In this document: piece by piece, positions 2,800 through 34,864 of the stretch
How the letters are laid out: every line of letters starts with the position of its first letter
Numbering within the stretch: position 1 is the stretch's first letter
Source of the DNA: a virus
Lineage: Duplodnaviria > Heunggongvirae > Uroviricota > Caudoviricetes
Direction: 5' to 3' (one strand)
Virus record (IMG/VR): IMGVR_UViG_2737471845_000031
Coordinates: 1 to 35,029 of that record
Length of the DNA stretch: 35,029 bases
The notes under the pieces: model-generated
Told to the model about the DNA's origin: nothing
Databases searched by the model: none
The model's input: the letters and a program-made list of their open reading frames with translations, nothing else
Translations under genes and position numbers: made by a program

Positions 2800-3137
2800 A
2801 GCAGTTCCTGAGTACGGGGTTGTCCGTCTGAGCCTTTCCAGCTCACCCGGAGCGTAAGATGTTCGCCGTCGACGGCGGGTTTAACCGACATAAGCTGGCA
2901 GCGGGGTTCCCAGCGCCTGATGGCATCGACGGATTCGCGAACCACATGCGGAATGGCCCGGTCGACAGGCCAGTCGATATAAAGGTGCAGATTGCTGCCG
3001 AACTCCGGGCGATGCGGGTCGCTGCCGCGGGGAGTCCGCAGGATGATCTGGATGGACTGCCGGATATCATCCAGCCCCCGGACGATTTCGCCGGGAGCCT
3101 GCAGAGCTGGTTGCCAGAATACTGAGGTCGTTTTCAT
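2790..3137 (-). CDS. baseplate wedge protein (GPW / T4 gp25-like)
   Basis: 115-aa ORF with the gp25/GPW-type motif region DDIRQSIQIILRTPRGS; sits between the gpV-like and gpJ-like genes. Confidence 0.75.
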   Translation of the reverse strand: MKTTSVFWQPALQAPGEIVRGLDDIRQSIQIILRTPRGSDPHRPEFGSNLHLYIDWPVDRAIPHVVRESVDAIRRWEPRCQLMSVKPAVDGEHLTLRVSWKGSDGQPRTQELLWR

Positions 3138-3193
3138 GGAGGCAGTATTGCCCCCGGGAAGTAAGCGCCGATATTAAAGGCGTTTAAGAAGGT

Positions 3194-8771: not shown

Positions 8772-8937
8772 TCAGTGGTTCGTCCCAGTCTGCCGGGTCT
8801 TTGTTGATTTTGCGCACCTGCTTCAGGTCTTTTACTGTCAGGCGTTTCAGTTCAATCTGTTCAATTCTGGTACCTGCAGCAGTGGTGAAAGGATAAGACA
8901 GCGTAAAAGTATCGGACTGGGTCTGTGACATGATCAT
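8596..8937 (-). CDS. tail assembly chaperone (P2 gpE / Mu gp41-like)
   Basis: 113-aa ORF between tube and tape measure genes; ATG 8937 with AAGGAG RBS; sequence pattern LKRLTVKDLKQV...ADYMELQKRF typical of this chaperone family. Confidence 0.65.
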   Translation of the reverse strand: MIMSQTQSDTFTLSYPFTTAAGTRIEQIELKRLTVKDLKQVRKINKDPADWDEPLIARSTGILPEDLDNMDLADYMELQKRFQKITGLGKSDKNTDAGAGPAGEMVQVSAGGD

Positions 8938-9028
8938 ACTCCTTTGTAAATTCAGAGCAGTATGTCTGGCGGTGGACGTGACGGATATTAAAGGAGATTA
9001 AGAAGAAGGGGCCGGAGCCCCTGTGATG

Positions 9029-11502: not shown

Positions 11503-11966
11503 CACTCGCTTTCCTCATAGTTCACTTCAGTTAACAGCGGGCCGGACGGTAAATCGCTGTCTTCGATAAAGACGCTTTCAGTCGCGAAGTCGAGGGCGTA
11601 CTGCCACAGCCCCCTGACTTCACCGATAAACACCTCGCGGGTCAGCCAGATACGGCGGCGGCACCCGGGCGGGGTGTAGCCACCAAGAATGCGGCGGACA
11701 GCATCCAGGACATTAATCGCCCCTTTTTTACCGTTGAGCTGTCGGAAGACCACCGTGACGCAGAGCTGGATAGTCTGAGGCTGGATCACCGCACCGGTAT
11801 CATCCGGCCTGTCGAAACGCGATCCTGCATAGCTCAGCAGCAACGCCCCGACAGAATGATTGAGGCGGTATTCGGACGGCTTTTCCGGGAAGTACTCAAC
11901 CTGCAGCTGAGGCAGCTTCTCGCGCAACCGGGCCAGCACCGCATCAAGGACGGGCAGAACATTCAT
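11502..11966 (-). CDS. head-tail joining protein (Mu gp37-like)
   Basis: 154-aa ORF in the gp36-gp37-gp38-sheath order of Mu-like phages; translationally coupled to neighbours. Confidence 0.5.
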   Translation of the reverse strand: MNVLPVLDAVLARLREKLPQLQVEYFPEKPSEYRLNHSVGALLLSYAGSRFDRPDDTGAVIQPQTIQLCVTVVFRQLNGKKGAINVLDAVRRILGGYTPPGCRRRIWLTREVFIGEVRGLWQYALDFATESVFIEDSDLPSGPLLTEVNYEESE

Positions 11967-13729: not shown

Positions 13730-14845
13730 TTACAGGCAGCGTGCGACAGCAGCCTCATAGCTGATGCCTTCTTTTTTGGACAGGGCCACTGCTTTCTGAT
13801 GCAGGGCCAGACGCTCAGGATCGGCTTCCGCAAACTCCGCCACATCCACCTTCACCGTGTCGCCGACACGCTCCTTTGTGGCCTGTTCGGCGAAATTCAT
13901 CACCGGCTCCCCGTCGGAGAGCAATGAACGGAAGGCGGTGGCCAGCGGCGTGCGGCTTTCCCCCTCAGCAAACTCCACCGGCTTGTCGCCACCGGCGACG
14001 GCATCCAGCAGGGCAACCACCACGGAGGAGGCGCGGGGAGCCAGACGCCCCTCTGCGACCAGTTTTTCTGCAAAGGCCACATTGTCCTTATGCAGTTGCT
14101 CCTGTCTGGCCTGTGCATCACGCGCATCGCGATCAGCAGCCTGCTGCTTCAGGCGGCGGTTCTCCTCCTGAAGGGCTTCAATCTCTTCTTTTGTCATCGA
14201 TGATTCCTCGTTACTTGCGGAAGACGGCACCTGGCCTGTCTCACTGAATTGTGCACCTGCTGCATCCTGCGACGGTGTGTCGCGGTACGCCTCTTCGCGC
14301 AGATTGTTGAGCTGCCATTCCGGCAGGACTTTTTCTGCTTCGTCCAGACTGAAGCGGGCGATCAGAAAATCGCGCAGCTTTCCCCACAGGGAGGCATTCG
14401 TGATGGCCTGCCAGTCGGCGAACTCCACCACACCTTCTTCCTGCTCACTGAAGGACACCTGTTTCAGCCCCTTGACGGAAGGTGGCTGTGCACCGAGAAA
14501 GCCCACATGGCGAAGGTAGAGCACGCCGGGCTTCGGATTGGACGGTGAATCCGGGAGGTAGAAAGAGGCGGACACTTTTTTGAATCGTCCGTCGGTGACC
14601 ATCTCAGCAAACTGCGGGTCCAGCTGGGCAGGCTCTGCCATCAGATCGACGCCGCTGAGCGACAGGGCTTTCACCCAGCCCCACGCCGGGTCTTCCGTTC
14701 TGGGATGACCAATCACGAGTGGTGCTTCATGGACGGACGGGTCATAGGCTTTCACGCAGGCGGCAAGATCGTCTGGCGTGAACGGCAGTTTTTTGCCGTG
14801 CATATCGGTATGAGTACCGGCTTTAAAAATGTGAATGGCTGACAT
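13730..14845 (-). CDS. prohead protease / scaffold protein (Mu I-like)
   Basis: 371-aa ORF; N-terminal region followed by a charged coiled-coil region (EEIEALQEENRRLKQQAADRDARDAQARQEQL); position between G-like and capsid genes as for Mu I. Confidence 0.7.
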   Translation of the reverse strand: MSAIHIFKAGTHTDMHGKKLPFTPDDLAACVKAYDPSVHEAPLVIGHPRTEDPAWGWVKALSLSGVDLMAEPAQLDPQFAEMVTDGRFKKVSASFYLPDSPSNPKPGVLYLRHVGFLGAQPPSVKGLKQVSFSEQEEGVVEFADWQAITNASLWGKLRDFLIARFSLDEAEKVLPEWQLNNLREEAYRDTPSQDAAGAQFSETGQVPSSASNEESSMTKEEIEALQEENRRLKQQAADRDARDAQARQEQLHKDNVAFAEKLVAEGRLAPRASSVVVALLDAVAGGDKPVEFAEGESRTPLATAFRSLLSDGEPVMNFAEQATKERVGDTVKVDVAEFAEADPERLALHQKAVALSKKEGISYEAAVARCL

Positions 14846-14869
14846 TTTGCTGTCCCGCGTTATGTTGTC

Positions 14870-14908
14870 GGAGACAGTTTGTGAGAAATGCAGGCCCGGC
14901 GATTTTAA
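14870..14908 (-). promoter_or_regulatory. candidate activator-dependent late promoter and leader upstream of protease/scaffold gene
   Basis: Minus-strand TTAAAATC (-10-like), 23 nt, then CTGTCTCC; the same arrangement with identical spacing lies upstream of the holin gene. No good -35. Confidence 0.45.
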
Positions 14909-14970
14909 TCTGCTTTAGAAAACATCAGGGGAGAAGGACAGGGAAAGCAATGCGGTGAACCGGAGGCGGT

Positions 14971-15013
14971 TATAAAACAGAGGCTGTAAAGCCTTTATAA
15001 AGGTAATACAGCC
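14971..15013 (-). terminator. candidate intrinsic terminator after the G-like gene
   Basis: Inverted repeat GGCTGTA / TACAGCC enclosing the palindrome CCTTTATAAAGG, followed on the minus strand by TCTGTTTTATA. Confidence 0.5.
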
Positions 15014-15059: not shown

Positions 15060-15518
15060 TCAGCGACGGGCCGCTGATTCAAGATGGCGGACAATGGTAT
15101 CTAGGATGGGGATTACCACTTCAGGCTGTAGTTCTCCATCCCCCGTCACCGGCAGGAACGGGCGGGCCGGAAGTTCAACAGACTCATTACGCCCCGTTTT
15201 ACCCCCGAACTGGTGAATGGCACCGTAAACAACGTTGGTCCCCACAACAGCCTGCCGGTCGTCATGGTCGGTTGATACTGACCCCATCAGACGCCCGGTA
15301 TCCTGCAGTGTCTGCCCGTCACGTTCTTCCGCTGCCAGCGAGGGCATCCACCCCGGACGCCCCTCATCAAGAAAGTTAAACTGTGTTTCCGCCAGCAGGG
15401 TTCCGGCGATTTTGCGCATCGCGGGCTCCAGGTCTGTGGCAGCAAGATCCAGCGCACGGAGGCTCCGGCGCAGGGATTTATCGTTAATGGTGATACTGAC
15501 CAGGTTATCGGAAGCCAT
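15060..15518 (-). CDS. virion morphogenesis protein (Mu G-like)
   Basis: 152-aa ORF with AGAGGA RBS directly after the F-like gene; conserved F-G order of Mu-like head modules. Confidence 0.65.
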   Translation of the reverse strand: MASDNLVSITINDKSLRRSLRALDLAATDLEPAMRKIAGTLLAETQFNFLDEGRPGWMPSLAAEERDGQTLQDTGRLMGSVSTDHDDRQAVVGTNVVYGAIHQFGGKTGRNESVELPARPFLPVTGDGELQPEVVIPILDTIVRHLESAARR

Positions 15519-17816: not shown

Positions 17817-19339
17817 CAGAATCCCTCCAGCATACGGGCCGCCTGACGACGACGGCGTGAGCTTGCCTTCACCGGCCCTTTGTTAATTTCACGGCTGGCG
17901 AAATACGCCAGCGCCAGTGCGATGGCTGAATCCCCGTGGCGTTTACCACCATCAGCCTTTGCTTTTGAGCGTTGCTCCGGCACGCGGGGGACACCGTTCA
18001 CCACCTGAACGGCCCGCAGGTCATCCAGTGTGTCTTCATCCTTTGGTAAGTCCACCAGGTTACCGTCTTCCAGTGCAGCTTTGACCGGAGGCATATGCTC
18101 CCGGTACCAGCCTTCGGTTGGCATCACCTGCTGAACCCGGCTGGAGCCGTAGCGCTGCATGGCGTATTCAGCCAGATAGGCACCATTACCACGGGCATCA
18201 AACGCAGCACCCAGCAGACCGGGCAGGCCATCCATCAGATACCAGGTGATTTGCTCCTGCTGCCTGAACGGCACGTTACGCAACTCCAGTACGAATGGCA
18301 CGCGTCGTATCAGGTTCTTCTCCTGCAGCAGGGGATAGTCCACCGACAAATCACCGCTACGGCCAAAGTCGCGCCCCAGAAAAGAGCGGGCACCAGCGGG
18401 GAGCGCCTCCAGCAAGGGTTTCAGATGCTCATCAAGCCAGTCCTGCGTCTCGCGGAAGCGAACCTCATCAGACAGCAGCTCATAACCTTCCTTGCAGGTC
18501 AGACGCAATACCGGCGTATCAGCGGACATGCGGGACTCTATCAGGGCTCGGGACAGCCAGGCACCGCCACCGTTGGCCGGAATACAGTCAAGCTCTTCGG
18601 ATGCACCGGCACCGTAGAATTTGTACACTGACGCCATCCAGGCCTGCTCGGATGCCTCCGACCATTCCTTCCCGGTGCGCAGACAAACGCGCCGGAACAG
18701 CCCCTCAGATACGGCTTCCCGGAAAGTGATGCGATGTACGCTGCCTCCCTGACGTCCGGCACGGATATCCCCGATAAGCGTATTGAACGGATTGTCGTCA
18801 CCGTCATGGGTGGAGATAACGCGTACCTTTCCCCCCCAGATAAGCATCGCCAGCGCCGCTTTCAGCAGTTCGTCCAGTTGCTCATGGAACGCCGCTTCGT
18901 CGATAACAATAATACCCTGACGGCCACGCAGGTTAGACGGGCGGCTGGAGAGCGCAACAATACGAAAGCCGGAGTCAGGAAATTTGATGGTGTAAGTCCT
19001 GATGTGTTTGTCGTCGTCGTCCTCTTCCCAGAATCCTTCTTCAATTTCACTGGCCGCATAGTTGAATGCCCGTGCCCACATCGCACACGCCTGAATGTAT
19101 TCGACGGTCATGTCCTGGTTATAAGCGATGTAATACACATTCATCCCGCCTGCTGGCGCAGAAGAGGCGGCGGTCAGTACGTTATCGGATGCCTCAGCCC
19201 ATGTAATACCGGTACGACGGCTCTTTTCTATCACCTTAAGCGGAGAGGCATCTGCCACCCAGCGCTGCTGGTAGGGCAACAGAACGGGAGGGGCCTTATA
19301 ACTCGCGGTGTCAGGAATGTGCGGCGGCAGCTCCGTCAT
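17816..19339 (-). CDS. terminase large subunit (Mu gp28-like)
   Basis: 507-aa ORF with a P-loop-like segment (KSRRTGITW) and a Walker B-like IVIDEAAF; located between the gp27-like and portal genes. Confidence 0.85.
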   Translation of the reverse strand: MTELPPHIPDTASYKAPPVLLPYQQRWVADASPLKVIEKSRRTGITWAEASDNVLTAASSAPAGGMNVYYIAYNQDMTVEYIQACAMWARAFNYAASEIEEGFWEEDDDDKHIRTYTIKFPDSGFRIVALSSRPSNLRGRQGIIVIDEAAFHEQLDELLKAALAMLIWGGKVRVISTHDGDDNPFNTLIGDIRAGRQGGSVHRITFREAVSEGLFRRVCLRTGKEWSEASEQAWMASVYKFYGAGASEELDCIPANGGGAWLSRALIESRMSADTPVLRLTCKEGYELLSDEVRFRETQDWLDEHLKPLLEALPAGARSFLGRDFGRSGDLSVDYPLLQEKNLIRRVPFVLELRNVPFRQQEQITWYLMDGLPGLLGAAFDARGNGAYLAEYAMQRYGSSRVQQVMPTEGWYREHMPPVKAALEDGNLVDLPKDEDTLDDLRAVQVVNGVPRVPEQRSKAKADGGKRHGDSAIALALAYFASREINKGPVKASSRRRRQAARMLEGF

Positions 19340-21886: not shown

Positions 21887-22233
21887 AGTCCTGTTGCCAC
21901 AGCCAGACAGATCGCTGCAACAATCAGTGCACGGCGGATTAACGCAGCAGCAAACACAAGGTGAAGGCCGGTCTGCACAGGGAAACGCCCTTCAGCCATC
22001 AGCCTGTCGTCATGTTTCAGGTACTGACCGGGACGGGCTTTGGGGAAGAGCGAACGGTCAAGCCAGTAACCCAGCACTGCTGCCAGCGTGATGAGTGCCA
22101 GCTTGTAGATCACAACAGGCAACTGCTGTGGCGAGACCAGAGCGATGGTGCCCAGCAACAGCACTGAGGTCAGCAGCCAGCCGCTGAGGCGAGGTTTTTT
22201 AACAGGGGGAATGAATTTTTTCAGGCTTTTCAT
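21883..22233 (-). CDS. holin-like membrane protein
   Basis: ~116 aa from ATG 22233 (AAGGAG RBS); three predicted TM segments; first gene of the lysis cassette. The ORF-track start at 22266 is less likely. Confidence 0.55.
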   Translation of the reverse strand: MKSLKKFIPPVKKPRLSGWLLTSVLLLGTIALVSPQQLPVVIYKLALITLAAVLGYWLDRSLFPKARPGQYLKHDDRLMAEGRFPVQTGLHLVFAAALIRRALIVAAICLAVATGL

Positions 22234-22252
22234 GTGTGTCTCCTTGTCTGGT

Positions 22253-22291
22253 GGAGACAGCATCACAAATACAGGGCGCGAAGGATTTTAA
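22253..22291 (-). promoter_or_regulatory. candidate activator-dependent late promoter and leader upstream of lysis genes
   Basis: Minus-strand TTAAAATC, 23 nt, CTGTCTCC, then ACCAGACAAGGAGACACAC-ATG; CTGTCTCC can pair with GGAGACA that includes the SD. Poor -35. Confidence 0.45.
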
Positions 22292-22363
22292 AGCGCGTTA
22301 AGAGAGCCGGGGATACGGGGTGTGCAGGATAAACGATGAATTATTCACAGAGGAGAATACGAT

Positions 22364-23107
22364 ATGACGCACACACTGAATCCGGTCATCACTGTCACTG
22401 TGTCCGGTCCTGTGGGCAGCGGTAAAAGTTACGTACTGGCGCGGATAGAAGAGATGGTGAAACAGGAACTCGGAAACAGCGTCATTGTCGATGCTGCTGA
22501 CGTGGAGAATGAGCGCCGTATGAGTGGCGATGATCTGACGACCTGGCAGAAGCCACGGGCTGGCACAGTGATCAGGCTGGAGGAATACACGGGACAGGGC
22601 CTGTTGTCATACGGCGAGGAGCGTATCTGTCGGACGAATGAGCTGCTGGATGTTATATGCCCCACGGGCCGGCAACCCTGGATACTGCCCGATGCACTGC
22701 ATGCCACCATTGCGGCACTGATGACAGTTTACGATCAGGAGCTGCTCATGAAGGAGTTACGTAAACTCGCTGGTCAGCCAACAGAATGTTTTTCGGCCCC
22801 GAAGTACGGGAAGCAGGAACACATCCCGGTGAACACAATCCCCGTTAACCAGCCTCCCCGGTTCTTCGACGAATACATTCTGACACCGGAAAATAAAGCT
22901 GAGCATGAAGAGATCAAAGCGGCGTTGTTCCGGGAAATCAGGAAGATTGCTGAAATGCAGCTGGAGGGCGGGCTGGACAGAGTGATGGCGAGAGGAGAAT
23001 GGGAATCGCTGTTTGAAAAAGTTTCCCCGGAATTGCTTCCCCTCGCACTGGCTATCGGGATTATGCAGACAACGGATAAACCTCACTTACGTTCATTAAA
23101 CACGTAA
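22364..23107 (+). CDS. hypothetical P-loop (Walker A) protein
   Basis: 247-aa ORF, ATG 22364 with AGGAGA RBS; N-terminal VSGPVGSGKSYVL Walker A-like motif; no further recognisable domain. Divergent from the late operon. Confidence 0.5.
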   Translation: MTHTLNPVITVTVSGPVGSGKSYVLARIEEMVKQELGNSVIVDAADVENERRMSGDDLTTWQKPRAGTVIRLEEYTGQGLLSYGEERICRTNELLDVICPTGRQPWILPDALHATIAALMTVYDQELLMKELRKLAGQPTECFSAPKYGKQEHIPVNTIPVNQPPRFFDEYILTPENKAEHEEIKAALFREIRKIAEMQLEGGLDRVMARGEWESLFEKVSPELLPLALAIGIMQTTDKPHLRSLNT

Positions 23108-23487
23108 CGCATAATCCGGGATACGCATTCAGCGATGACTGCATTTTCACCGGTTTTTACTGCATCCAGAAGCGACTCTTTAAATGGCACGGGCCGGGGC
23201 TGCAGAAAGGTCGGCATGGCATTGAGCAGACAGAGCGTTTTTTCCGTGAGGACGACATCAGCCGCTCCCACAGCCAGCAACTGAGAGTAACGAATATAGC
23301 TGTTATCCCGAAGCCATATCAGCGTATCAATAAAATACCGGCACTTTTTCTGGTCGTGATCAACCTGGTCCGGGATATCGAAAAAACCAGAATAAATCAA
23401 AACCTGAGGTACCGGATGCGTGTTCAGTAATCGGCAGAATATTTTGCCGGTGAGTACATAAAAATCATCATTTAAGGAGTGCATCAT
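23083..23487 (-). CDS. hypothetical protein, paralog B of the 23951-24331 gene
   Basis: 134-aa ORF filling the gap between flanking plus-strand ORFs. Alignable blocks with paralog A (IFCRLLNTHP ~ IFGRLYESFP, FIDTLIWLRDNSY ~ FLDTVDWLKNSGY, VVLTEKTLCLLNA ~ AVLTAKGLEVLNA). Confidence 0.45.
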   Translation of the reverse strand: MMHSLNDDFYVLTGKIFCRLLNTHPVPQVLIYSGFFDIPDQVDHDQKKCRYFIDTLIWLRDNSYIRYSQLLAVGAADVVLTEKTLCLLNAMPTFLQPRPVPFKESLLDAVKTGENAVIAECVSRIMRYVFNERK

Positions 23488-23701
23488 GAATCCCCGATTA
23501 ACGTTAACAGAACATCAGCGCCGTGCTGAAGCAGTGAACAATGTTCTGGAAGATATTATCCGGTTACATCGCGGAGAACTGAGTATCTGTCGTGCCACTG
23601 TTCATTTTCAGGAAATACAAAAGCAGTTTGATACTTCTGTTTTTGCAGAAGGGCTCACTTACGCCCTGGACCAGATAAGGTCAGAAAATCACCCCGGATA
23701 A
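23486..23701 (+). CDS. hypothetical small protein
   Basis: 71-aa ORF with AAGGAG RBS 6 nt upstream; its start overlaps the divergent paralog B start (CATG). It may instead be non-coding leader. Confidence 0.35.
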   Translation: MNPRLTLTEHQRRAEAVNNVLEDIIRLHRGELSICRATVHFQEIQKQFDTSVFAEGLTYALDQIRSENHPG

Positions 23702-23757
23702 TCCCTAAACCGCATTAACAGAAATCCCACTATCCCTGCCGCATCATGAAAGAACGA

Positions 23758-23785
23758 CCAGCCCGGCACCCGAAAGCCGGGCTGG
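23758..23785 (-). terminator. GC-rich hairpin (candidate minus-strand terminator)
   Basis: Perfect 10-bp inverted repeat CCAGCCCGGC / GCCGGGCTGG with 8-nt loop; minus-strand downstream sequence is TCGTTCTTTCATG. Confidence 0.4.
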
Positions 23786-23890
23786 CCATCGTCCCACAGG
23801 AATGCACTGTGAGCCGACCGAGGTTCAGTCAGTCTCGTGAGACCAGACTAGCCTGCCATATTTTTAATAATTGTAAAATGTTTACAGATT

Positions 23891-23992
23891 ATGAAAACGC
23901 AGACATTACCCATCGTTCCATGGATTGGTGGCAAACGCTGCCTTGCGATATTACATAAGACCACGAGACATATATTGCAGACCTATTCCTAG
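23891..23992 (+). pseudogene. diverged 5' remnant of a second Dam methyltransferase gene
   Basis: Encodes MKTQTLPIVPWIGGKRCLAILHK..., matching the Dam N-terminus MKEQSLPIVPWIGGKRRLAKHILPQ; stops after 33 codons and runs into the 3' end of the paralog A gene. Preceded by a ~90-nt leader ~70% identical to the leader of the intact dam. Confidence 0.5.
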
Positions 23993-24331
23993 AGTCTGGC
24001 TAACCAGTGATCGCAACGCTTCTTTCCCTTCAATTTTTATAGAGTCAGATATTCTGGCCCCCAACGGTTTTTCCAGACTTCCAGGCGTAGCGTTTAATAC
24101 CTCAAGACCTTTAGCCGTTAGCACTGCGTTGTGGATCCCCCCAGAACTACGCGCCCCGATTAAATAGCCACTGTTTTTAAGCCAGTCTACGGTATCAAGA
24201 AAAAAAGTAAGTTCATTCTGTCTAACGATATCAACTGCCTTTATATCAATTTTGACGGGGAAAGATTCGTAGAGTCTCCCAAATATCTCACCAACTATTT
24301 CATTAAACCGCTCAATATTTTTTGGGGCCAT
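23951..24331 (-). CDS. hypothetical protein, paralog A (possible winged-helix protein)
   Basis: Likely ~126 aa from ATG 24331 (GGGAG upstream); the ORF-track start at 24415 would cover a hairpin. Contains an LT-x-KG-like segment (AVLTAKGLEVL). Divergent from dam. Confidence 0.5.
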   Translation of the reverse strand: MAPKNIERFNEIVGEIFGRLYESFPVKIDIKAVDIVRQNELTFFLDTVDWLKNSGYLIGARSSGGIHNAVLTAKGLEVLNATPGSLEKPLGARISDSIKIEGKEALRSLVSQTLGIGLQYMSRGLM

Positions 24332-24378
24332 GGTATTAGTAACTCCCTTTAATTGTCGCCCATGAAATATGCAAATAA

Positions 24379-24411
24379 CATGAAAAGAGCGACTCACCTT
24401 GTGCAGCGAAC
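24379..24411 (-). terminator. hairpin (candidate minus-strand terminator or insulator) between dam leader and paralog A
   Basis: 13-bp inverted repeat GACTCACCTTGTG / CACAAGGCGAGTC (one mismatch) with 7-nt loop; minus-strand downstream sequence GCTCTTTTCATGTTATTTGC. Confidence 0.4.
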
Positions 24412-24525
24412 ACAAGGCGAGTCATCAACTTACAGGTATGAGCTGTGAGTCAACCGAGGCTCTTCCGTTCTCGAGAACAAGGGAAGCCTATCGCATTTTC
24501 ATCTAATGAAAAAGGCTTACAGATA

Positions 24526-25290
24526 ATGAAAGAACAATCTTTACCCATCGTCCCCTGGATTGGGGGAAAACGTCGTCTGGCCAAACACATTCTGCCTCAG
24601 TTCCCACTCCATACCTGCTATGTGGAGCCATTCTGCGGCGCAGCAGCACTTTATTTTCTCAAGACTCCCAGCAAGATCGAAGTCATTAACGATATCAACG
24701 GTGAACTGGTAAATCTGTATCGGGTAGTAAAGCATCATCTGGAAGAATTTGTCCGCCAATTCAAATGGGCGCTGGTTAGCCGGCAGATCTACAAATGGCT
24801 GCAGATCACCCCGGAAGAAACACTGACGGATATCCAGCGTGCGGCACGGTTCTACTACCTCCAGAAGCAGGCGTTTGGGGGCAAGGTGGCAGAGCACAGC
24901 TTCGGCACCTCCACCACCTCCCCGCCACGCTTCAACCTGCTACGGATTGAAGAAGAACTGTCAGCGGCACACCTGCGGCTTTCCAGAACGGTGATAGAAC
25001 ACATGGACTGGCACCAGTGCATTAAGCGTTATGACCGTCCGCACACGCTGTTCTACTGTGATCCGCCCTATCTGGGGACGGAAGGCTATGGTGTGGATTT
25101 TCCTGAAGAGAACTACACACTACTCGCAGAACTGGCACGGTGCATCAGAGGAAAGATGATTATCTCGGTGAATGACATTCCGCAGATGCGTCGGGTGTTC
25201 ACTGAACTGAACATACAGACGGTGAATATCAACTACAGTCTGGCGGGGAAACCCACGCCACGCCGTGAACTGGTAATCTGCAACTTCTGA
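24526..25290 (+). CDS. dam: DNA N6-adenine methyltransferase (Dam family)
   Basis: 254 aa from ATG 24526; N-terminus LPIVPWIGGKRRL, FCGAAAL SAM-binding-type motif and catalytic DPPY, as in Dam-family N6-adenine methyltransferases. No adjacent restriction endonuclease gene. Confidence 0.85.
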   Translation: MKEQSLPIVPWIGGKRRLAKHILPQFPLHTCYVEPFCGAAALYFLKTPSKIEVINDINGELVNLYRVVKHHLEEFVRQFKWALVSRQIYKWLQITPEETLTDIQRAARFYYLQKQAFGGKVAEHSFGTSTTSPPRFNLLRIEEELSAAHLRLSRTVIEHMDWHQCIKRYDRPHTLFYCDPPYLGTEGYGVDFPEENYTLLAELARCIRGKMIISVNDIPQMRRVFTELNIQTVNINYSLAGKPTPRRELVICNF

Positions 25291-33305: not shown

Positions 33306-33747
33306 ACAACGTCTTATCCAGCTCATTCATATTGCCCGTAATGAACTGGGTATGGATGAAGACACCTACCGCCAGATGTTACAGGGGCTGACCGGTAAAG
33401 CCTCAACCAAAGGAATGGATACCACACAACTAAACTGCGTGCTGGAATCCATGAAAAGGAAAGGCTTTCGCGTTAAGCCTGCCGGAAAAGCCAGCTCCGG
33501 TTTACCGCTGGATAACCATCCGCAGTCCAGGAAAATCCGTGCGCTATGGCTTGAAATGGCTGCTGCCGGCATTGTTCGTGACCGTTCAGAAAATGCATTA
33601 GCGCGGTGGATCAAGCGGGAAACGGGCATCAGCGCCCTGCGCTGGCTCAATACTGAACAGGCAAGCAGTGTTATTGAGAAACTGAAGAAGTGGCAGCACA
33701 GAGCTGCGGGAGTAAAACATGAGCGACCTGAATCAGTTTCGAAGTAA
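33295..33747 (+). CDS. gemA: GemA-like regulatory protein (Mu gp16 family)
   Basis: ~150 aa from ATG 33295 (AAGGAG RBS); N-terminus KQRLIQLIHIARNELGMDEDTYRQML typical of GemA/gp16 proteins; immediately upstream of mor. Confidence 0.7.
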   Translation: MMTKQRLIQLIHIARNELGMDEDTYRQMLQGLTGKASTKGMDTTQLNCVLESMKRKGFRVKPAGKASSGLPLDNHPQSRKIRALWLEMAAAGIVRDRSENALARWIKRETGISALRWLNTEQASSVIEKLKKWQHRAAGVKHERPESVSK

Positions 33748-34117
33748 AGGGCCGGAACTCCTGGTGGAGCTGGCACAGCATACCTCTGAGACCGTTCGCG
33801 AGATTATTGATATTGAGCCCGCAATTGCCGACCAGATTGGTCAGGCCGTCGCGAACCGAATGATGCAGGTCTGGGGCGGGCAAAACGTTTATTTCCCGAT
33901 GGGCATGGTATGGAAGGTCAGTCAGCGCGACCGGGAAATCTTCAGGGAGTTTAACGGACGCAACCACCACGAACTGGCCCGCAAGTTTGGTGTTTCGCTT
34001 CAGTGGGTCTACAGCGTGGTTAAGCGGGTCAGAAAAGAAGAACTGGATCGGATGCAGGGCAGGTTGTTTGATGAAGATCTGCCAGAGGAGACGAAAGACG
34101 TTAACAAATCCAGATAA
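33719..34117 (+). CDS. mor: Mor/C-family transcriptional activator
   Basis: 132-aa ORF with the Mor/C C-terminal HTH region FREFNGRNHHELARKFGVSLQWVYSVVKR; last gene of the early operon; the only Mor/C homolog in the window. Confidence 0.8.
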   Translation: MSDLNQFRSKGPELLVELAQHTSETVREIIDIEPAIADQIGQAVANRMMQVWGGQNVYFPMGMVWKVSQRDREIFREFNGRNHHELARKFGVSLQWVYSVVKRVRKEELDRMQGRLFDEDLPEETKDVNKSR

Positions 34118-34160
34118 TTCCTGCTTGTTAAAGTCCTTTCAAAAATCTCCTTATTGTATA

Positions 34161-34193
34161 AAAGCACGGTAGACCCCTTACCGTGCTTTTTTT
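34161..34193 (+). terminator. rho-independent terminator of the early operon
   Basis: 11-bp perfect stem AAAGCACGGTA / TACCGTGCTTT with 7-nt loop, followed by a T-run, 44 nt after the mor stop. Confidence 0.75.
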
Positions 34194-34231
34194 ATGCTCT
34201 CTCTTTAGTATTCAGGATGCAGGGAGAAAAT

Positions 34232-34864
34232 ATGTTTGACGTTTCGTTGTTAAATCTGCCATGGGCAACACTGGTGACCCTGACCAGTGGCTATATTGGG
34301 TATTTTATTGCGAATGTGGGACTGAAGGATCACCACAAGCCCATTGAGGTGACTTTTTCTTCGCTGATTTTTGGCCTGACAGCAATGATGGCTTACCAGG
34401 CTGTTATGTGGGCAGGTCTGAATGCCTGGCTGGCAACACCACCAGCACTTCTGTGTGCCGTTACATGCGGTGCGTGGTGGCGCAGGTACGGTCGCAAATG
34501 GATGTACAGATTACTGTGGAATAATGATATTTCATGGTCTGACGATACCAGCTCAGCATGGCAGGCAATGTTTGATCAAACAGGCTTCAGCGTTACCGAG
34601 GTCAGAGTGATTCTTCGCGATGGTTCCGGTATGATGTCACGGCTGCCAGGGAACTTTGAAGAGTGGCCTAACGGTCCGTTTACCCTGGGGAATAAAGGCG
34701 ATATGGTTCTTTACGTCACGCACAGCAGCCCTTCAGGCAGTAACGAATGGGAAGAGTATAAAGGCGTGGTTGATAAGTACTGGGGAGCTCTGGCAACCTA
34801 TATTCCAGCAGATCAGATTGCCAGAGTGGAGATCAGGCGCGTTCGTGCAACGAACGATGAATGA
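34232..34864 (+). CDS. hypothetical membrane protein with soluble C-terminal domain
   Basis: ~210 aa from ATG 34232 (GGGAGA RBS); the ORF-track start 34154 overlaps the terminator. Three predicted N-terminal TM segments, then a hydrophilic domain. Phage or host origin unclear. Confidence 0.5.
   Translation: MFDVSLLNLPWATLVTLTSGYIGYFIANVGLKDHHKPIEVTFSSLIFGLTAMMAYQAVMWAGLNAWLATPPALLCAVTCGAWWRRYGRKWMYRLLWNNDISWSDDTSSAWQAMFDQTGFSVTEVRVILRDGSGMMSRLPGNFEEWPNGPFTLGNKGDMVLYVTHSSPSGSNEWEEYKGVVDKYWGALATYIPADQIARVEIRRVRATNDE

Follow-up and report, generated by a model that had tools for sequence, protein, structure and literature searches.

Four predicted Mu-type, activator-dependent late promoters in a BcepMu-like prophage of Escherichia coli

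The window, by which we mean the whole stretch of 35,029 nucleotides that was analysed, is a Mu-like transposable prophage of E. coli of the BcepMu type (Bcepmuvirus-like). The sequence is a 98% match to Escherichia phage PhiKM, and an 84% match to a clone that was deposited as Klebsiella phage KP12. The record of this clone (OM835952.1, 'Klebsiella phage KP12 clone KP12_2') places it in Vequintavirinae, a taxonomy line that does not fit the sequence, as its content is that of a complete BcepMu-like transposable phage, with a transposase, GemA, a Mor-like gene, and a P2-like tail. The early operon of the window is encoded on the plus strand, where it contains the genes for a transposase and GemA and ends with a gene of the Mor family (33719-34117). 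The lysis, head, and P2-like tail genes are located on the minus strand, divergent from the early operon, which is the layout of BcepMu. Several late operons carry the tail and baseplate genes, which include P2-like gpV, W, J, I, FI, FII, E, T, U, and D. A scan of the whole window against Rfam returned no family at gathering threshold.

Between the lysis promoter and the repressor lies a variable cargo region (22364-25290), which consists of wholly different DNA in relatives. Encoded here are a P-loop protein (PHROG 3787; 22364-23107, plus strand), two paralogous members of PHROG 2266 (23083-23487 and 23951-24415, minus strand), and a Dam-like methylase (24445-25290). The P-loop gene is divergent from the holin gene, with 130 bp between both start codons. 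The region of the protease promoter was found in 637 out of 5426 complete E. coli genomes, in at most 3 copies per genome, and with an identity of at least 99% in 598 of the matching records. This prevalence, along with the multiple copies, is consistent with an active transposable prophage.

Two genes of the late region are preceded by the same two-part motif, TTAAAATC-N23-CTGTCTCC, on the minus strand. One copy (14908-14870; TTAAAATC at 14908-14901 and CTGTCTCC at 14877-14870) is found 25 nt upstream of the ATG at 14845 of a head maturation protease/scaffold gene (PHROG 976). The other (22291-22253; TTAAAATC at 22291-22284 and CTGTCTCC at 22260-22253) is found 20 nt upstream of the ATG at 22233 of a gene for a Holin_2-3 family holin, which is followed by a gene for an SLT-domain lysin. 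The original prediction, that the motif is repeated with a gap of exactly 23 nt upstream of both genes, was thus borne out at both places. When up to 3 mismatches were allowed, a search of the whole window returned the same two places and no third or fourth copy (0.15 expected), and 1 out of 100 shuffles reached 2 matches. Each 8-mer by itself is unremarkable, with 3 occurrences of CTGTCTCC in the window against 0.99 expected, and 2 of TTAAAATC against 0.64 expected. The same prediction had seen no good -35 here, in agreement with a sigma-70 consensus scan of the minus strand, which detected no -35/-10 promoter pair.

Phylogenetic footprints were made from relatives of the protease, the holin, a 113-aa tail chaperone, and a 115-aa gpW protein, all taken from IMG/VR. 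The DNA upstream of each gene was compared, covering about 270 related loci overall and giving 36 unique sequences for the holin promoter, 9 for the protease promoter, 35 for the tail-chaperone promoter, and 36 for the gpW promoter. Upstream of the holin gene, the unique sequences share a first block, CT.tTAAcGC.gTTTAAAATCC, then roughly 16 positions that vary in sequence and are fixed in length, and then a second conserved block, G-t-nATGCT-GTCTCC-A. The nATGCT of the second block is at least 90% conserved and lies 19 nt after the site contained in the first. The DNA upstream of the first block falls into at least 5 unrelated contexts among the holin relatives. Because of this, the C-rich stretch that had been noted upstream, while it does exist in the window, is unconserved at the holin promoter.

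The same conserved-variable-conserved footprint was seen at the tail-chaperone and gpW promoters, among their 35 and 36 unique relatives. Across all four promoters, the site and the hexamer with its discriminator are at least 90% conserved in fixed columns, while the spacer and the DNA upstream of the site show free sequence variation. The hexamer, which ends in the "CT" of CTGTCTCC, keeps its A2 and T6 in at least 90% of the sequences of every promoter class. Within the first block, most protease-promoter variants, two holin variants, and BcepMu have TTAAAAGC in place of TTAAAATC; in the group of protease promoters with 74% protein identity, TTTTCTAAAGCAGATTAAAA is kept and TAAAAG replaces the TAAAAT of the window. 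The conserved blocks persist across hundreds of loci, including those of Burkholderia phage BcepMu, while the flanking DNA diverges.

The site in the first block is a 14-bp imperfect dyad (TTAAA-N4-TTTAA). Two further promoters, both missed by the search with the exact motif, surfaced only after this dyad had been recognised. A search of the window for TTAA-N6-TTAAAA with 1 mismatch returned 11 matches against 0.79 expected, palindromic sites being counted on both strands. The relaxed site [CT]TAA-N6-TTAA[AT]ATC was found four times in the window against 0.003 expected, and 0 out of 1000 shuffles exceeded 1; as the pattern was partly derived from the same four sites, we regard conservation as stronger evidence than this shuffle test. 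All four relaxed sites are on the minus strand, in the four largest intergenic gaps of the late region. Aligned on the dyad, they read (T/C)TAA-N6-TTAA(A/T)ATC, followed by 19 nt (20 at gpW), a hexamer, a discriminator, and a purine. The dyad reads TTAAC-GCGC-TTTAA at the holin promoter and CTAAA-GCAG-ATTAA at the protease promoter, the latter being poor (3 out of 5 arm positions). The centres of its two TTAA half-sites are separated by 10 bp, or one helical turn, and 23 nt (24 at gpW) separate the dyad from the conserved hexamer downstream. If the seventh base after the hexamer is taken as +1, the dyad is predicted to be centred at -42.5 (-43.5 at gpW).

At the holin and lysis promoter, the predicted activator site is TTAACGCGCTTTAA followed by AATC (22284-22301, minus strand), conserved among the 36 unique relatives and containing TTAAAATC. 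Conservation and the spacing known from Mu point to GATGCT (22259-22264) as the -10 hexamer, preceded by TGT as in an extended -10. The discriminator GTCTCC (22258-22253) follows, with a predicted +1 at the A at 22252, placed by analogy to Mu, and then the SD region GGAGACA (22243-22237) and the start codon (22233-22231). We also considered the ATG inside GATGCT, which is in frame in the window, as part of a dual start for holin and antiholin. This was rejected, as the frame is not conserved in relatives (for example in L115).

At the protease/scaffold promoter, the predicted activator site is CTAAAGCAGATTAA followed by AATC (14901-14918, minus strand). The predicted -10, CAAACT (14876-14881), is identical to the hexamer of the Mu PI promoter, and is followed by the discriminator GTCTCC and a putative +1 at the G at 14869 (together 14869-14875), the SD-like GGGACAG (14856-14850), and the start codon (14845-14843). 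Upstream of this promoter are two terminator-like hairpins on the minus strand, one at the end of a G-like gene (15060-15077), where it closes the lysis-head operon, and one at 14981-14994.

The third late promoter (8952-9001, minus strand) lies upstream of the genes for a tail assembly chaperone (Pfam Phage_TAC_7) and the tape measure. Its predicted elements are the site TTAATCTCCTTTAATATC (9001-8984), the -10 CATACT (8964-8959), the discriminator GCTCTG, and a +1 at the A at 8952. A terminator hairpin, GGGGCTCCGGCCCC (9008-9021, minus strand), precedes it, the T-run of which enters the promoter's site; the hairpin is conserved as a structure in relatives. The chaperone open reading frame is listed from the ATG at 8937, 1 nt from which lies the SD GGAG (8942-8939, minus strand). 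This SD is 7 nt from the next in-frame ATG at 8931, from which relatives align, and 8931 is probably the true start.

The fourth late promoter (3137-3187, minus strand) precedes a gpW-like baseplate gene (Pfam GPW_gp25), with a predicted site TTAAACGCCTTTAATATC (3187-3170), a predicted -10 AATACT (3149-3144), and the discriminator GCCTCC. The ATG of gpW (3137) directly follows AATACT-GCCTCC, 7 nt past the hexamer and without an SD, an arrangement kept in about 80 loci. The A of this ATG is the predicted +1, so that the mRNA would be leaderless. An inverted repeat surrounds this -10 (GGGGGC-AATACT-GCCTCC, 3138-3155, minus strand). Similar repeats surround the -10 of BcepMu gp49 (GCGGC-AACATG-GCCGC, upstream of 30823 in record L296) and that of BcepMu gp21 (ATGCCGTC-CAAGAT-GACGGCAT, about 11512-11533 in the same record). 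Between the enteric and the Burkholderia phages, GGGGC/GCCCC is exchanged for GCGGC/GCCGC, a compensatory double change.

Taken in this way, TTAAAATC is probably the promoter-proximal half-site of the predicted activator site with its flank, at about -39 to -32. CTGTCTCC probably consists of the last 2 nt of the -10 and the 6-nt discriminator, at about -8 to -1, and the 23-nt gap between the two probably reflects promoter geometry, being a 19-nt spacer and 4 nt of the hexamer. The predicted start sites are then 22252, 14869, 8952, and 3137, all on the minus strand. CTGTCTCC had originally been read as part of the transcribed leader, which is probably wrong; as the end of the -10 and the discriminator, it is predicted to be absent from the late mRNA leader.

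The gene at 33719-34117 (plus strand), the last of the early operon, had been proposed as Mor-like, on which both Pfam (PF08765 Mor, E = 1.1e-43) and PHROG (532, 'late transcriptional activator') agree. It is the one gene for a Mor/C-family activator in the window. Its product shares 31% identity with Mu Mor, 35% with Mu C, and 56% with BcepMu gp01, and has a helix-turn-helix segment that is nearly identical to that of gp01 (ELARKFGVSLQW[V/I]Y). Near its C-terminus, QGRLF (34060-34117, plus strand) aligns with QRDLF of BcepMu gp01 and with QPDLF of Mu C, which we take to be the beta-clamp-binding motif of MuC. A C-terminal beta-clamp-binding motif is required for MuC-dependent transcription (PMC12867686). 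If QGRLF is such a motif, late transcription in the prophage may also be coupled to the sliding clamp.

Directly after this gene there is a site-like element, TTAAAGTCCTTTCAAAAATC (34128-34147, plus strand), whose half-sites are spaced differently from those of the four late promoters. Next come the terminator of the early operon, GCACGGTA...TACCGTGC-T7 (within 34128-34195, plus strand), and then a gene for a 210-aa membrane protein (PHROG 12870; 34232-34864, plus strand). Relatives with as little as 59% protein identity keep both the element and the terminator, separated by DNA that varies. In Mu, the Mor-activated promoter Pm, with a dyad centred at -43.5 and an activator of the same family, is located in the same position, directly after mor and overlapping the early terminator. 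Pm drives the gene for a second activator, whereas the four promoters in the window drive late genes.

We infer that the Mor/C-type activator most likely switches on all four late promoters. In the mechanism that we propose, this single protein would be made at the end of the early operon, and would bind the two TTAA half-sites, one helical turn apart and centred near -42.5 or -43.5. Once bound, it would enable RNA polymerase to reach a productive open complex in spite of the missing -35, the role that Mu C has at Plys, PI, and PP. Each promoter would be composed of the 14-bp imperfect dyad (T/C)TAAN-N4-NTTAA with its conserved 3' flank (A/T)ATC, a spacer of fixed length (19 nt; 20 at gpW) and free sequence without a -35, a weak -10 hexamer of the form nAnnCT, and a 6-nt pyrimidine-rich discriminator, G(T/C)CTCC, followed by a purine at +1.

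The Mu promoters provide the framework for this proposal. Mu C recognises a 16-bp imperfect dyad centred at -43.5, Plys requires -52 to -34 and the -10, and the Mu late promoters carry no -35 hexamers (PMC2582627). The contacts of Mor and C fall in two neighbouring major grooves, immediately upstream of a poor -35 (bioRxiv 10.1101/2025.05.02.651988). To position Plys, PI, and PP, we read against the Mu genome the oligonucleotides of PMC4461284 (Table 1), which extend 20 nt downstream of each S1-mapped start. Plys reads CATAATCCC-N20-TAGACT-GCCATC-A, PI reads CATAACCCC-N20-CAAACT-GACTGC-T, and PP reads CATAACCCC-N20-TATCCT, giving the common form CATAAYCCC-N20-hexamer-6 nt-+1.

Mu and the window share a number of features. 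Both have four late promoters, heading lysis/head, protease (I), and tail/baseplate operons, and in both the promoters lack a -35 and carry an imperfect dyad, located at roughly -50 to -36 and followed immediately by critical bases. The proximal half-site is equally far from the -10 in both, and the hexamers have the form nAnnCT in common, with CAAACT identical at the promoter of the I/protease gene. Leaders are short in both, terminators lie just upstream (in the window, before the protease and tail-chaperone promoters), and both activators belong to the Mor/C family of Pfam. The half-sites differ, with TTAA-N6-TTAA(A/T)ATC in the window and ...CATAAYCCC in Mu; the proximal half-site is ATAA at -40 to -37 in Mu and TTAA at -39 to -36 in the window, if +1 is the seventh base after the hexamer. 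In an alignment of the activators, the DNA-contacting residues Q113 and Q116 of Mu C are replaced by W and S. Unlike Mu, the window has one activator in place of the two-step cascade from Mor to C, late genes that are divergent from the early operon, one promoter predicted to yield a leaderless mRNA, and no equivalent of mom.

In BcepMu, the same site with the same 19-nt spacing was found upstream of the gp21 holin gene, gp32 (I), gp41, and gp49 (W), the same four positions as in the window, with the nAnnAT-type hexamers CAAGAT, GATGAT, GACAAT, and CAACAT, respectively. Two of these, gp49 (CAACAT-GGCCGC-ATG) and gp32 (GATGAT-GGGCGCC-ATG), are arranged like gpW in the window, without an SD, and their mRNAs, too, would be leaderless with a start 7 or 8 bases past the hexamer. 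The annotated start of gp32 (18850 in record L296) falls inside the predicted -10, and the ATG at 18863 is a better match to the N-terminus of the protease in the window.

As the tail and baseplate genes resemble those of P2, which also has several late operons, promoters of the P2 type were considered as well. The late promoters of P2 and 186 depend on zinc-finger activators (Ogr/B/Delta) and carry a TGT-N12-ACA element near -55. The activator in the window is of the Mor/C type and not of the Ogr type. Upstream of about -52 at the holin promoter, we found no conserved DNA and no TGT-N12-ACA. With no conserved DNA around -55 and no sign of an Ogr-type activator, promoters of this type were rejected.

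Mu-type late promoters dependent on an activator had been suggested for the protease and holin genes from the start. This is now very likely, given the support from the motif family, its conservation and spacing, and the activator gene. We consider it probable that these are sigma-70 promoters with the revised anatomy given here. Counting against this anatomy, the predicted -10 hexamers match TATAAT at only 3 to 4 out of 6 positions, and TAAAAT and TAATAT, both within the proposed activator site, themselves resemble -10 hexamers. In addition, the conserved complementarity of the core promoter to the SD and AUG of the holin gene would be simplest to explain if this DNA were transcribed.

At the holin gene, TGTCTCC pairs exactly with GGAGACA (22243-22237), forming 7 bp that overlap the SD. 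A partner of the form GG(A/G)GACA had been reported for both leaders; this is exact and conserved at the holin gene, while the partner in the protease leader is GGGACAG (14856-14850), so that pairing there needs a bulged T. RNAs that include the promoter fold into structures that bury the SD and AUG of both genes (holin, -15.9 kcal/mol, z -2.1; protease, -17.1 kcal/mol, z -1.9), while almost no structure forms in RNAs that begin at the predicted +1 (-0.5 and -5.9 kcal/mol, respectively). Among the 36 unique holin promoters, the mean unpaired probability from SD to AUG was 0.65 when the RNA began at the predicted +1, 0.18 when the native 40 nt upstream were included, and 0.43 when these 40 nt were shuffled. 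For 27 of these 36 sequences, it was below that of at least 38 out of 40 shuffles. Occlusion was also seen at the protease promoter of the window, and was weak in the group of protease promoters with 74% identity and at the tail-chaperone promoter.

A formal count of pairs among the relatives detected no covariation in the holin helix: 86% of cells were paired with 1 double change, and the covariation score of 0.096 was equalled or exceeded in 500 out of 500 shuffles. Wherever only one side of the 7-bp core has changed, the pairing remains wobble-compatible. Both arms are constrained otherwise, one being the core promoter and the other the SD, and the gpW promoter keeps GCC(T/C)CC though it has no SD to pair with. 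A wider claim, that such complementarity is general among phages with Mor/C-type activators, was dropped, since Mu Plys, Mu PI, and the BcepMu gp21 holin promoter showed no occlusion beyond shuffled controls. Only BcepMu gp41 did, out of the four Mu and BcepMu promoters; Mu Plys has a 7-nt complement (GCCATCA/TGATGGC).

These results bear on the anatomy that the original prediction implies, in which the TAAAAT in TTAAAATC is the -10, an activator sits on the C-rich DNA, and transcription starts near 22278 and 14895. As part of the same joint reading, CTGTCTCC would lie in a leader of 45 to 50 nt, where it would pair with the SD and throttle translation of holin and protease. The match of TAAAAT to TATAAT at 5 out of 6 positions speaks for this, as do the hairpins, the conserved occlusion of the holin start, and the wobble-compatible changes in the helix. 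However, the critical last T of such a -10 is lost in most variants of the protease promoter, in two of the holin promoter, and in BcepMu, all of which read TAAAAG, and the unconserved DNA upstream of the holin site would leave no site for an activator. The segment from TTAAAATC to the hexamer, variable in sequence and fixed in length, resembles a promoter spacer rather than a UTR. Furthermore, the spacing to the mapped start sites of Mu favours the downstream hexamer, and the helix lacks covariation. Lastly, a start 25 nt further upstream is disfavoured because the start codon of gpW would then be without a ribosome-binding site and directly behind a stable hairpin; with the ATG 7 to 8 nt after the hexamer and without an SD at gpW and at BcepMu gp49 and gp32, a start downstream of the hexamer is the only fit. 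We therefore consider both the upstream -10 and the leader that throttles translation unlikely.

A second alternative would be that TGTCTCC-N9-GGAGACA is a DNA operator for a repressor; either the repressor of the prophage or a protein of the host would then cover the start site and keep the lysis genes silent. The repeat is a perfect 7-bp inverted repeat at predicted +1 to +20, and it is conserved. Each arm is, however, explained by the constraint on the core promoter or on the SD, and the loop, which ranges from 9 to 16 nt among relatives, is ill-suited to a dimeric operator. The substitutions are wobbles of the G-U type, which matter for RNA and not for recognition of DNA by a protein, and no matching repeat is present at the gpW promoter, making an operator very improbable. 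Least credible is a chance resemblance or the remnant of a duplication without a regulatory role, as the individual 8-mers are not rare, but the combined pattern and the four-site family are (2 against 0.15, and four against 0.003, expected), and conservation of the blocks in hundreds of loci with diverged flanks already contradicts it.

Under the revised anatomy, the hairpin takes on a different meaning. If the start sites are as predicted, it cannot act on late transcripts, because its 5' arm lies upstream of +1, and it could act only in RNA that reads through from upstream. Of the translational control proposed originally, the conserved complementarity and the occlusion of the holin SD and AUG thus stand, while covariation is lacking, and control of the activator-dependent transcript by a leader hairpin is probably wrong. 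No intrinsic terminator was detected between 23083 and 22301.

This leaves room for a tentative suggestion, which we regard as possible rather than likely: the core promoter of the lysis genes may double as an anti-ribosome-site sequence, providing a fold-back safeguard. The region from -12 to -1 of the holin promoter is the reverse complement of the region from SD to AUG. Transcripts entering from the variable cargo genes would fold back and hide the start of the holin gene, leaving only the activator-dependent transcript, which would start past the 5' arm, open to translation. Fold-back inhibition of RNAs that read through into IS10 and IS50 has reportedly been worked out by Kleckner and Reznikoff. 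In these elements, a hairpin that buries the ribosome-binding site forms only in transcripts from outside, as transcription from the promoter of the element itself begins inside the hairpin. Under the revised anatomy, the same would be true of the holin promoter. In contrast to IS10 and IS50, the fold-back in the window is a prediction, its helix lacks covariation, and it is absent at Mu Plys and PI and at the holin promoter of BcepMu.

In the searchable literature, we found no late promoters described for BcepMu, KS10, or Bcepmuvirus, although the 2004 paper on BcepMu may mention some, and no start-site, footprint, or reporter data for the BcepMu-like group. The analysis yields a candidate late-promoter consensus for this group, (T/C)TAA-N6-TTAA(A/T)ATC-N19/20-nAnnCT-G(T/C)CTCC-R, along with a prediction of the full late regulon under a single Mor/C-type activator, comprising four operons. 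The relatives of the prophage reach as far as Burkholderia phage BcepMu, and the distinct DNA specificity suggested by the half-sites can be compared with the recent cryo-EM structures of Mor and C. Gene starts are corrected as well, and leaderless late mRNAs are probable. If the fold-back is real, it would constitute a built-in guard of the IS10/IS50 type against accidental lysis of the lysogen and, together with a leaderless gpW mRNA, would mean that these late promoters encode translational as well as transcriptional logic. The finding is not a new kind of regulation, but an extension of the Mu paradigm to the BcepMu-like phages.
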